DNA of 64,000 nucleotides from Bacilli bacterium. Lineage in GTDB: Bacteria; Bacillota_I; Bacilli_A; RFN20; CAG-826. This document shows, in pieces, positions 37,978 to 40,910 of the stretch. Location of the stretch: assembly GCA_017477255.1 (NCBI GenBank), contig JAFUXB010000002.1, positions 182,474 through 246,473 of the forward strand, given 5' to 3'. The notes beneath the pieces are model-generated. The model saw nothing but the letters and a program-made list of their open reading frames with translations, made no database searches and was not told the DNA's origin. A program made the translations under genes and the position numbers. Within the stretch, counting starts at the first letter, position 1. Every line of letters begins with the position of its first letter.

Positions 37978-39198
37978 TTATTTTTCTTCTTTATTTTCGG
38001 CATTTGTTTCGTGATCGTTTGATTTATTTTTTCTAAATTTTTTAATTGCTTCTAAGAAGCTTTCTTCTTCATCTTCCTCTTCAACAAAGAATTTCTTTTT
38101 AGGTTTTGAAGATTTTTCTTTAGAAGCGATGTCTTTTTTATCTTCTAAAGAATTTTCTTTATTTTCTTCTTCACCTTTTACTTCTTCTAAAGCTTCTATT
38201 TTTTTAAATGTTTCACCATCTTCTATTTTGGTGAGGGTAGTCTTATCAAAATATTCTTTAATTGATTCATCATTTAAATCTTCTTTTTTAATGAAGTTAC
38301 CTTTATTAAAATCAAATTTTATTCCTTTATATATAAGGGAATGAGAATCAAATGATTCTACAACAGGATTATTTAAATCATAATCAAGTAATTTGATAAT
38401 TTGGTTAGTTCTATCATCAATAGTTTTATCTAATTTATTTTTATAGTGATCAAACATAAATACGCAATATGCGACACTAACAACAGTAATAATTCCAGAA
38501 TTAGATTGAAGGAATATAACAAAGCTTCCTAAAGCTTTCATTCTAAATCCATCATAATATCCTATTAAATCTTTATAGGTTAAATAATCTCCAGAATATA
38601 AAGCTGTTGCTGCTTCACTATCTTTAGTTGTGTATTTATCACCTCTAGTGATGACTTTAATATCACCATCTTCAGTATGATCTAAAGATATAATTCTATG
38701 AACAATAGTTCTACCATCTTTTGCTTTATATGCGACTACATCATATAATTTAACTTCAGAAATACTTTTATATTTAGTAAGTCCTAAAATATCATAAGTA
38801 TCAAACTGGTTAGTTACTCCAGCTTCTTTAATGTCAGTATTTTCTTTATTTACTTCTGACATTGAGTCTGAACCAATAACTAGTAATCCTTTATCTCCAA
38901 ATATCATTGCATTTGAGTTAATTCTAGAATATAAACTGAATGCAAATATTAAGATAACAATAGCATATAAAGAGTAATAAACTACTCTTCCTGCTATTTT
39001 CATTCCTTTTGTTCTTGGTTTTTGATTTTCTTTTTCTTTAATAAATACACTATTAATAATTTCTAGATCTTCTCGCCCTTCTTTAACATCTTTAATGGCA
39101 GTAAGGTTATAACTTCTAAATAGTACTGTAAATACAGCACTAAATGAGAGCAAACATACTCCAGTAATGATAAGGGCGAGAATCTCTAAATTTGACAT
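37978..39198 (-). CDS. sipW: ER/archaeal-type signal peptidase I (SipW/Sec11-like, Ser-His type) with long charged C-terminal extension
   Basis: 406 aa. TM anchors. LVIGSDSMSEV, compare Sec11 VVLSGSMEP. TIVHRIISL, compare Sec11 IVHRVLR, with the His of the catalytic dyad. ITRGDKYTT, compare LTKGDNN. Adjacent to two proteins carrying TasA-type signal peptides. Confidence 0.7.
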   Translation of the reverse strand: MSNLEILALIITGVCLLSFSAVFTVLFRSYNLTAIKDVKEGREDLEIINSVFIKEKENQKPRTKGMKIAGRVVYYSLYAIVILIFAFSLYSRINSNAMIFGDKGLLVIGSDSMSEVNKENTDIKEAGVTNQFDTYDILGLTKYKSISEVKLYDVVAYKAKDGRTIVHRIISLDHTEDGDIKVITRGDKYTTKDSEAATALYSGDYLTYKDLIGYYDGFRMKALGSFVIFLQSNSGIITVVSVAYCVFMFDHYKNKLDKTIDDRTNQIIKLLDYDLNNPVVESFDSHSLIYKGIKFDFNKGNFIKKEDLNDESIKEYFDKTTLTKIEDGETFKKIEALEEVKGEEENKENSLEDKKDIASKEKSSKPKKKFFVEEEDEEESFLEAIKKFRKNKSNDHETNAENKEEK

Positions 39199-39234
39199 AT
39201 ATATTTATTTTTTAAGTAAGTGTGTGGGTGTTTA

Positions 39235-40074
39235 TTATAAAGTTGAAACTGTGACGTCAAAACTTGCGTCATTTAATAAGTGTAAATTTTGTAAACGGCT
39301 AATTGCACCTATATAATTTGTTTCAGAAACAGTTTTATCATCGATGTATTTGTGATTTGCATCATCTTCAACAAATTGAGTTGGATTTAAACTACTAAAG
39401 AATTCGTTATAGCCAAAACCAAAAGTAAAATAAATTTCAATATAATTTCCATCCGTATCAACACGTTTATATAGGCTATAATTAACATAGCCCGTTGTCC
39501 AATTGGCAGATGTTGGTGATGCACTATTAGTACTCAAAGAGCTAACAGTTTGTTCAAAACCATCTGTTAAATCAATTGGATTAACAATAGATGAATTATT
39601 CGTTGCTGCATATGTAGCAATAGCATTATTTAAATTACTTTGTTTTGAGCTACTTTCACTAGATAAAGCTAAATTAAATTTAACTTTAGCAAAGGCATCG
39701 CTAATTGGTTTATTTGATGCATTATAGCTTGTCTTTGCACCTTCTAAGAAACCTGTTCCCGCATCATTAACATTTGCTTCCCATCCAATTTTTAAGGTTC
39801 CTGCAAAAGTCATGTTTTCTGTAGCTTCTGGGTTTGATGCAGATATTAAACCAGCACTTGTACCTACAGCGTCAAATACAACGCTATTATCTGACAAGGA
39901 TGCAAACATTTTAAGTCTATTATCACTAACATCCCCAACAACAACTTGGAAATTACCTACAGATTGATTCGTTAATTGGGCTCCTAAAACCCAGTTTGCA
40001 AAACCTACTGAAAGTAACGAAATAGCAGCTAATCCCCCTACAATCAAAGGAAGTTTTCTTTTTTTCTTAATCAT
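39235..40074 (-). CDS. TasA/camelysin-like secreted protein 3 with SipW-cognate-type signal peptide
   Basis: 279 aa. N-terminus MIKKKRKLPLIVGGLAAISLLSVGFANWVLGAQLTNQSVGNFQVVVGDV. Lies immediately upstream of sipW on the same strand. Confidence 0.55.
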   Translation of the reverse strand: MIKKKRKLPLIVGGLAAISLLSVGFANWVLGAQLTNQSVGNFQVVVGDVSDNRLKMFASLSDNSVVFDAVGTSAGLISASNPEATENMTFAGTLKIGWEANVNDAGTGFLEGAKTSYNASNKPISDAFAKVKFNLALSSESSSKQSNLNNAIATYAATNNSSIVNPIDLTDGFEQTVSSLSTNSASPTSANWTTGYVNYSLYKRVDTDGNYIEIYFTFGFGYNEFFSSLNPTQFVEDDANHKYIDDKTVSETNYIGAISRLQNLHLLNDASFDVTVSTL

Positions 40075-40076
40075 AA

Positions 40077-40910
40077 TTAAATACTATGTGATAATCCAGC
40101 AAAAATCTTAATTTCTGCACCTTCTCCAGTTTCGAAATATTTTTTCATTGCATCTAATTCATCTTTGATTGCTTTTGTGTAATTTCCAATTTCTTCTGCA
40201 GTAGCATTTCCTAAAACTGTGCTATTAAAAACTCCATTATAGAAATTATAAGGTGAGACTCCTCCGAAGAAACCTCCCCATTCAAATTCTAATAATTTAG
40301 CATTTGCATTAGCTGTGAAAGTTTTATCAGTTTCATTATCAACAATGGTAAAGTTATCTTGAGTCAAAGCTACAGTTTTACTAAATGTAATATAGTTCAT
40401 ATCTGTTCTGCTTGAACTATCCAATTCTTCTCCACCATTAGTAAGTGTTTCTAAACTATCAGCAGTTGCAGCATAAGTATCAGCTGTTGCGGCTTGGCCT
40501 TCTGTTTTAACTGATTTTAAAGTGAAAGTAACTTGATCATAATCATCTACTAAATCACCACCTAAGGCAACAGAAAAAACATCTAATGATACTTTCATTG
40601 CGTTAGCATTAACTTGAATTGGGCTTTCAGCATCATTTGCGCTTACATTAACTAATTTTGATGTATCTGTTGCTGGAGCTGAAGTTTCACCAATAGTTAA
40701 TTTTGTACCTTCTGCAAATTTAACTGTCAAATAAGCAGTTTGGCTTGAAGCAGTATCAACTTGAACAGCGATTCCATTTTCTTGTTGAGTTCTTTGAACA
40801 CCAACGACCCACGTTGCAAAACCAGTAGTTAATAATGAAACAGCACTAAAAGCTAAGATTCCACCAGTTACCCACTTACGTTTGCTAGCTAAACTTAATT
40901 GTTTTTTCAT
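40077..40910 (-). CDS. TasA/camelysin-like secreted protein 4 with SipW-cognate-type signal peptide
   Basis: 277 aa. N-terminus MKKQLSLASKRKWVTGGILAFSAVSLLTTGFATWVVGVQRTQ. Tandem with 39235..40074. Confidence 0.55.
   Translation of the reverse strand: MKKQLSLASKRKWVTGGILAFSAVSLLTTGFATWVVGVQRTQQENGIAVQVDTASSQTAYLTVKFAEGTKLTIGETSAPATDTSKLVNVSANDAESPIQVNANAMKVSLDVFSVALGGDLVDDYDQVTFTLKSVKTEGQAATADTYAATADSLETLTNGGEELDSSSRTDMNYITFSKTVALTQDNFTIVDNETDKTFTANANAKLLEFEWGGFFGGVSPYNFYNGVFNSTVLGNATAEEIGNYTKAIKDELDAMKKYFETGEGAEIKIFAGLSHSI

Follow-up and report, generated by a model that had tools for sequence, protein, structure and literature searches.

The stretch analysed here, which we call the window, comprises 64,000 nucleotides from a Bacilli bacterium (assembly GCA_017477255.1, contig JAFUXB010000002.1, positions 182,474 to 246,473 of the forward strand) and contains a signal peptidase gene next to two genes for small secreted proteins, its predicted substrates. 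A preliminary description of the sequence had placed three open reading frames (ORFs) here, and all three are present on the minus strand, at 37978–39198 (406 amino acids (aa)), 39235–40074 (279 aa) and 40077–40910 (277 aa). Database entries identical to the window proteins carry the locus tags IJ656_01650/55/60. The organism had been portrayed as AT-rich and lipoprotein-rich, which agrees with a GC content of 23–33% (about 26%) and with lipobox N termini in about 17 window ORFs; translation with code 11 gives a good reading.

To place these genes in context, we compared 85 loci around peptidase homologues, drawn from 80 species-representative genomes and five metagenome contigs. The gene order is nearly invariant over these loci, which range from 23 to 64% GC: one to seven small motif proteins (mostly two) are followed by the peptidase, an AAA+ protein (~605 aa), a Zn-ribbon protein (~450 aa), an ATP-binding cassette (ABC) ATPase, a permease, a protein of ~810 aa and one or two lipoproteins. 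The small proteins lie directly upstream of the peptidase in 74–76 of the 85 loci, and every locus has exactly one peptidase copy, at a constant position. The preliminary description had regarded 37978–40910 as the core of a module resembling that of the TasA fibre. This understates the context, as the span is the 5′ part of a cluster that reaches about position 26834.

The 406-aa protein (37978–39198) is a membrane-bound Ser-His signal peptidase of the endoplasmic reticulum (ER)/archaeal type (S26B, Sec11/SipW-type) whose catalytic domain faces the outside of the cell. Its sequence includes VIGSDSMSEV, TIVHRIIS and ITRGDKY, and thus each of the motifs previously quoted for it (GSDSMSEV, IVHRII and TRGDKY) in the expected place. 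The hallmarks of S26B are all present, namely a Ser in an S-M motif, a His (not Lys) in (V/I)HR and an Asp-bearing T(K/R)GDxN box. In an alignment of 115 homologues, S112-M113, H167-R168, T184, G186, D187 and D193 show no variation and N189 shows almost none; because the catalytic Ser, His and Asp never vary, there appears to be selection on the peptidase to cleave something.

Three transmembrane (TM) helices, at about residues 3–27, 70–93 and 224–250, accompany a catalytic domain at about 95–222. Lys/Arg-rich loops at 28–68 and past 250, together with the helices of the structural model, place this domain outside and the tail inside. Several parts are specific to the family. The first N-terminal TM helix is strongly conserved, and an insertion of ~17 aa after the Ser motif includes the invariant residues Q131 and D136 and the nearly invariant N120 and Y135. 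A further addition had been described as an acidic and Lys-rich C-terminal tail of ~200 aa that SipW lacks. Parts beyond SipW do exist here, but the region is ~155 aa long, and its first ~65 aa (about 255–333), which include a beta-rich cytoplasmic domain at about 272–333, show family-wide conservation and are predicted to be folded; only the remainder is a charged, variable tail.

A Pfam scan of the peptidase returned zero matches. Among NCBIfam models, TIGR02228 (sigpep_I_arch) matched with an E value of 5e-9 (36.2 bits, below its curated cut-off of 51.85) and the Bacillus SipW model NF046067 with an E value of 2e-6 (27.5 bits, below its cut-off of 190). Both are equivalog models, and by its sequence the peptidase belongs to a diverged branch rather than being an equivalog of either. 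The protein has at least 147 homologues, nearly all of them unnamed. A profile of the peptidase family matches human SEC11A and SEC11C with E values of about 6e-9; in the alignment, VHRI lies opposite IVHRV, and TRGD opposite the TKGD of the TKGDNN box. With a local profile, SipW scored 46 bits and the Ser-Lys peptidase SipS of Bacillus subtilis 3 bits, a comparison that serves as corroboration only; the His motif overlapped with SipS only non-significantly (−3 bits, VHRII opposite VKRII). The peptidase model has the S24/S26 beta-fold of S26/LexA proteins and signal peptidases, with Streptococcus pyogenes SipA (PDB 4n31) as its best structural match. The NCBIfam, SEC11 and SipW matches, the invariant Ser, His and Asp and the fold therefore all bear out the SipW/Sec11 Ser-His type proposed at the outset, and the competing alignment to the bacterial P-type peptidases with their Ser-Lys dyad was tested and not found.

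The two small proteins upstream, which we refer to as ‘A-type’ (40077–40910, minus strand, 277 aa) and ‘B-type’ (39235–40074, minus strand, 279 aa), are both predicted to be secreted substrates. The A-type signal is MKKQLSLASKRKWVTGGILAFSAVSLLTTGFA, followed by TWVVG..., and the B-type signal ends in ...ISLLSVGFA, followed by NWVLG.... In both N termini a Lys/Arg-rich stretch and a hydrophobic helix lead into GFATWVVG or GFANWVLG, much as previously described. Among all 101 ORFs of 50 aa or more in the window, the pattern GF[AS]xW is present exactly 4 times, always at residue 23–30 and behind a Lys/Arg-rich start with a hydrophobic helix, and a looser pattern adds the large proteins 7763–11140 (SYA↓SW, the arrow marking the predicted cut) and 20554–24099 (GSA↓SW). 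The earlier count of four, and probably six, candidate substrates can thus be reproduced.

The predicted cleavage site was chosen by a scoring rule that favours the motif, and such a site was present in every sequence. Among 175 non-redundant family members, the residues before the predicted cut are G at P3 (88%), F at P2 (89%) and A or S at P1 (99%), and those after it are T, A or S at P1′, W at P2′ (94%), I or V at P3′ (90%) and I or V at P4′ (86%). A cut after G-F-(A/S) obeys the −3/−1 rule in 99% of these sequences. In TasA, W occupies P2 and F occupies P2′, a neighbourhood that blocks Escherichia coli LepB, whereas SipW processes the site (PMC10269814). Aromatic residues next to the predicted scissile bond are found here, as in TasA, at both P2 and P2′ (PMC10269814). 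Conservation amounts to 2.4–3.0 bits per column over the signal and the initial five residues of the mature protein, compared with 1.4–1.5 in the core, and the hydrophobic helix alone reaches 2.4 bits per column. Judged by these values, the signal region is the best-conserved part of the small proteins, the opposite of what is seen with ordinary Sec signals. The same motif also ends the signals of unrelated large proteins, both the two of the window and proteins of 900–1100 aa in L033, L069 and other loci of our set. Taken together with the high signal conservation, its presence on unrelated large proteins indicates that the motif behaves as a sorting or processing signal with a cognate enzyme.

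Other signal classes were also considered. The n-region ‘SKSKRKWxxGG’ is nearly invariant in A-type proteins, and models of the KxYKxGKxW signal peptide gave the only recurring matches of the Pfam and NCBIfam scans, faint ones (E about 0.05–0.08) to 16–28 of 75 members, which we treat as an n-region resemblance. Pilin_N matched the small proteins with an E value of 0.39 only. We rejected type IV or archaeal pilins as candidates: the motif follows the helix, and a prepilin peptidase was not found among the Pfam and NCBIfam matches in the cluster.

BLAST connects the tandem A and B proteins through their N termini alone, and a single-sequence search with the B protein found one close homologue only. 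By comparing profiles built from the 85 loci, however, full-length homology between the A and B families became apparent (hhalign probability 99.9%, E 6.6e-32). A search with a mixed A/B profile reached the wider family, which consists of 1831 clusters at 50% identity (E ≤ 1e-3), all of about 230–300 aa. Precomputed Pfam domains were absent from A/B family members among the matches listed. The AlphaFold monomer model of the A protein (predicted template modelling score 0.72) shows a beta-sandwich core, with core blocks mostly above 85 in the predicted local distance difference test (pLDDT), and C-terminal helices that include a long segment at 238–261. Residues 5–52 have a pLDDT below 50, and ~20 residues past the signal are unstructured. 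The family also shows a conserved F-x-W-G-x-F-F...P...Y-N motif. The small-protein genes thus represent one large, fast-evolving and unannotated family of secreted beta-sandwich proteins of ~250 aa.

These proteins had been described as TasA/camelysin-like, a relationship that our comparisons do not support. Peptidase_M73 (PF12389) gave zero matches at E ≤ 1 in the A and B window proteins and 75 family members. The signal-peptide class TIGR04088, to which the N termini had been likened, is absent from the 25 listed families among the 37 NCBIfam families matched by those 75 members at E ≤ 1, and the A and B window proteins themselves have zero NCBIfam matches; the motif is analogous in its aromatics at P2 and P2′, but its consensus is different. 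Alignment of the family to TasA with hhalign gave a probability of 1.3–2.4% that concerned the signal peptide only. A search of PDB structures with the A model returned generic beta-sandwich matches; TasA was not among them, and the jelly-roll of PDB 5OF1, suggested as a point of comparison, was not recognizable in the A model. On this evidence, the predicted small substrates are not TasA homologues.

In the window, the cluster extends from about 41578 to 26834, all on the minus strand, with intergenic gaps or overlaps of a few bases. We found no minus-strand terminator-like site ahead of a hairpin with a 12-bp stem at 24919–24891. The best promoter-like site (41613–41584) lies just upstream of 41054–41578; the promoter scan gave fewer matches in this AT-rich DNA than in shuffled sequence and is uninformative. 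The gene at 41054–41578 encodes a membrane protein of 174 aa at the 5′ end of the cluster. Homologues occupy the same position in 5 of the 85 loci, so its place in the system is weakly supported.

Immediately downstream of the peptidase gene, 36136–37950 encodes a membrane protein of 604 aa, probably of the AAA+ type (78 of 85 loci), in which an N-terminal multi-TM region precedes a cytoplasmic, probably McrB/AAA_5-like P-loop NTPase with an invariant Walker A motif, GLSGTGKSS, and an invariant VLDEMN. It matched AAA_5 at E 0.003 (below cut-off), McrB in the PDB at E 0.08 and PDC-M26A, a candidate phage-defence family of PADLOC, at E 2.7e-35. The next gene (34752–36134; 75 of 85 loci) encodes a cytoplasmic protein of 460 aa with a C-terminal CPxC...CxxC zinc ribbon; its cysteines are invariant, and PDB profile matches were limited to zinc ribbons. 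The PDC-M26A match had raised a role of this pair in phage defence, which we consider unlikely given its fixed place inside a conserved, non-island cluster in ~78 loci and a partner that matches no defence model. Between the Zn-ribbon and ABC ATPase genes lies 34336–34749, which encodes a small Zn-ribbon and DUF4190-like membrane protein. No counterpart of it was found in the 85 related loci; it is specific to the window and may be outside the system.

The ABC-transporter ATPase (33154–34317; ABC_tran E 1.8e-26) carries a fused N-terminal receiver domain (Response_reg E 3.6e-23). Its orthologues in 77 of 85 loci have ~260 aa and no receiver, which makes the fusion in the window unusual. It is paired with a permease of about 12 TM helices (31535–33154; 70 of 85 loci), for which we found weak matches to PF16949 and PF09847 and zero relatives in a PDB profile search. 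P809 (29106–31535; 809 aa; 59 of 85 loci) combines a signal anchor at its N terminus with a large extracellular part. It has no family match of its own; PF13229, a right-handed beta-helix, matched 3 of 18 orthologues, and the consensus contains N-x-T-I-x-N-S repeats, so that the extracellular part probably contains a right-handed beta-helix. A PDB profile search of P809 found zero relatives. Two paralogous lipoproteins with a lipobox (27961–29103 and 26834–27973; E 1e-35 to each other) complete the 3′ end and are present in 48–53 of 85 loci.

Outside the cluster, the motif recurs on the minus strand in two satellite small proteins with GLGFS↓TWAVA, namely 11140–11757 (205 aa), which is translationally coupled to 7763–11140, and 24096–24761 (221 aa), which overlaps the start of 20554–24099 and is likewise translationally coupled to it. 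Both had been taken as further paralogs of the tandem proteins. The quoted GLGFSTWAVA is present in each, but the independent family profile matches only the N-terminal ~45 residues. The adjoining large surface proteins, also on the minus strand and introduced above for their signal ends, have 1125 aa and a Big_2 domain (7763–11140) and 1181 aa with Flg_new (Listeria-Bacteroides) repeats (20554–24099). They are homologous to each other and show sub-threshold matches to Hint modules near the C terminus (E 2.5e-5 and 9e-4). Two other groups of paralogs were noticed on the minus strand of the window: tandem Cys-rich lipoproteins with 43% identity (2579–3340 and 3671–4444), and a row of large lipoproteins and proteins at 51155–58718, upstream of an ABC sugar-transporter-like block at 58721–63197.

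Based on the above, we think it rather likely that the region is a conserved operon of ~ten genes in which a dedicated S26B peptidase is combined with non-TasA substrates, reproducing the logic of SipW and TasA with different parts, and in which the substrates would polymerise by way of their N termini. The peptidase would be dedicated to this signal class and would cut after G-F-(A/S). Such a cut would leave bulky aromatics at P2 and P2′, a feature that in TasA makes for poor cleavage by ordinary Ser-Lys peptidases and a need for SipW. The mature proteins released in this way would carry two conserved elements at their start, the hydrophobic segment xW(I/V)(I/V) and a V-x-V-(D/G) strand, both of which are unpacked in the monomer model. 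The free N-terminal segment would then most likely insert as a strand into a neighbouring subunit, as it reportedly does in TasA. Donor-strand use of an N-terminal segment has been described for AbpA of archaeal bundling pili (PMC9245690) and for BsaA of Clostridium perfringens (PMC11580942). The low-confidence residues 5–52 of the A model are compatible with such a donor strand and prove nothing. The outcome would be a surface polymer of one to seven paralogous subunits, and adhesin-like large proteins that bear this signal could be added to it. The McrB-like NTPase and the Zn-ribbon protein, the ABC transporter, the beta-helix protein and the lipoproteins would be obligate partners, possibly for assembly, energising or anchoring.

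This arrangement resembles the tapA-sipW-tasA operon of Bacillus subtilis in that a Ser-His peptidase of the ER/archaeal type shares one operon with its presumed substrates. Aromatics beside the scissile bond, a C-terminal TM helix in the peptidase and a free N-terminal segment in the mature substrate are also common to both. By contrast, the substrates here are not detectable Peptidase_M73 homologues by sequence or fold, and their signal does not match TIGR04088. Compared with SipW, the enzyme has an extra N-terminal TM helix, the ~17-aa insertion and the ~155-aa cytoplasmic domain and tail. The operon also goes on, unlike tapA-sipW-tasA, with the AAA+, Zn-ribbon, ABC transporter, beta-helix and lipoprotein genes. 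In the sipW-bsaA-bsaB-bsaC locus of C. perfringens, a SipW-type peptidase likewise lies beside two paralogous matrix subunits (PMC11580942). In that system, a disordered loop at the N terminus has been proposed to enter the adjoining subunit, and the oligomers are membrane-anchored (PMC11580942). BsaA and BsaB are remote TasA homologues with proposed inter-subunit isopeptide bonds, and their secretion is linked to type IV pilus genes (PMC11580942); TasA homology, isopeptide bonds and a type IV pilus link are all undetectable in the locus studied here. Eukaryotic SEC11A/C, which work in a multi-subunit complex, and archaeal Sec11 are general enzymes, whereas the peptidase described here is linked to one substrate class. 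The theme of a dedicated Sec11-type peptidase would appear here with a new substrate family and in a new, larger gene context.

Another relative, S. pyogenes SipA/LepA, shares the signal-peptidase fold; the gene for SipA accompanies pilus genes, and pilus polymerisation depends on the protein. SipA is not known to have the catalytic residues and works with sortase-assembled pili. The window enzyme differs in that its catalytic residues are invariant in the family and in that its lineage, presumably RFN20, is reported to be without sortases (PMC10868615).

Several observations weigh against a dedicated peptidase with polymerising substrates. Cleavage, secretion and the polymer all lie beyond the gene level and, like fibre formation as a whole, are only what we infer. 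The monomer model shows no direct sign of a missing strand, and the AAA+ and ABC genes are tied to the small proteins by conserved gene order alone. With TIGR02228 as with the SipW model, the score of the peptidase remains under the curated cut-off. The non-significant TasA alignment hints at another cleavage register, TW(I/V)↓, which we rank lower because Ile or Val is unfavourable at P1. Finally, the peptidase could be the only, general type I signal peptidase of the cell, and the conservation of the hydrophobic helix would fit equally well if the helix were kept as a mature anchor.

The former of these last two possibilities would make the S26B enzyme the sole type I peptidase of Bacilli with reduced genomes, serving every non-lipoprotein secreted protein, with the adjacency to the small proteins a matter of operon history. 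The single copy per locus in its constant place fits this, as does the use of Sec11-type enzymes as the general peptidase in archaea (PMC9245690). Moreover, W is found at P2′ in 6/6 non-lipoprotein signal peptides of the 64-kb window, and the motif could therefore be the general cleavage site of the organism. However, conservation in the signal region of the adjacent proteins goes far beyond the needs of a general Sec signal, synteny with the small proteins holds over loci of 23–64% GC, and the first TM helix, the post-Ser insertion and the cytoplasmic domain are extras specific to this enzyme family. One locus, L048, holds two secreted proteins with ordinary A-x-A signals and no aromatic residue. 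These proteins sit awkwardly with a dedicated motif, and they also speak against a motif that serves all secreted proteins. Overall, we regard a purely housekeeping role as unlikely.

Retention of the helix would instead turn the small proteins into type II membrane-anchored accessory or binding subunits of the ABC/AAA+ machinery, with a peptidase that acts elsewhere or is regulatory. The strong conservation of the hydrophobic helix (2.4 bits per column) is what would be expected in this case, and the signal anchor of P809, encoded downstream, is clearly of the uncleaved kind. Structurally, the peptidase is closest to SipA, which also points this way, as this homologue of signal peptidases has a role in pilus assembly and is not known to need proteolysis for it. 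Against this stand the invariance of the catalytic Ser, His and Asp in 115 homologues and a motif that sits exactly at the outer-face cutting position and obeys the −3/−1 rule in 99% of 175 sequences, which leaves an uncleaved anchor distinctly unlikely. It is very improbable that the small proteins belong, as highly diverged relatives, to the TasA/camelysin jelly-roll family and make TasA-type fibres. Their operon does include a SipW-type peptidase, they have an aromatic residue at the predicted cut and a beta-rich core with a free N-terminal segment, and archaeal TasA relatives are detectable by the most sensitive methods only (PMC9245690), but the Peptidase_M73, TIGR04088 and hhalign results above, the long C-terminal helix at 238–261 and the family’s own F-x-W-G-x-F-F...P...Y-N motif all argue otherwise.

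The loci are carried by Candidatus Onthovivens, Caccosoma, Scatosoma, ‘uncultured Mollicutes/Bacilli’, Clostridium sp. CAG:568 and Staphylococcus sp. CAG:324, and Candidatus Enterosoma was also among the family members in protein searches. The titles of six contigs with this Bacilli-type cluster (L017, L021, L022, L023, L029 and L044) name Bacteroides uniformis, Alistipes onderdonkii, Oscillospiraceae, Paludibacteraceae, Lachnospiraceae and Sodaliphilus, probably through mislabelling or mis-binning. The carrier genera, which are filed by NCBI under Bacilli incertae sedis and which we take to be the GTDB order RFN20, are abundant, uncultured gut Bacilli. RFN20 reportedly has no sortases, and the absence of peptidoglycan has been predicted for two of its families (PMC10868615), so that a system of this kind could plausibly serve these bacteria as their chief means of displaying surface proteins. 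A literature search found no paper describing the system.

Being retained in about 80 species, the cluster is a strong candidate for the main surface structure of its carriers, and the sharply defined cleavage motif makes the proposed processing directly testable. The locus would extend the known use of dedicated Sec11-type peptidases in bacteria beyond substrates of the TasA family. More tentatively, and with considerable doubt, the whole cluster might be one unrecognised machine that builds and anchors a donor-strand surface filament with large adhesins, on gut Bacilli that presumably belong to families predicted to have neither peptidoglycan nor sortases. If this is true, it would constitute a new surface-display route in these gut Bacilli.

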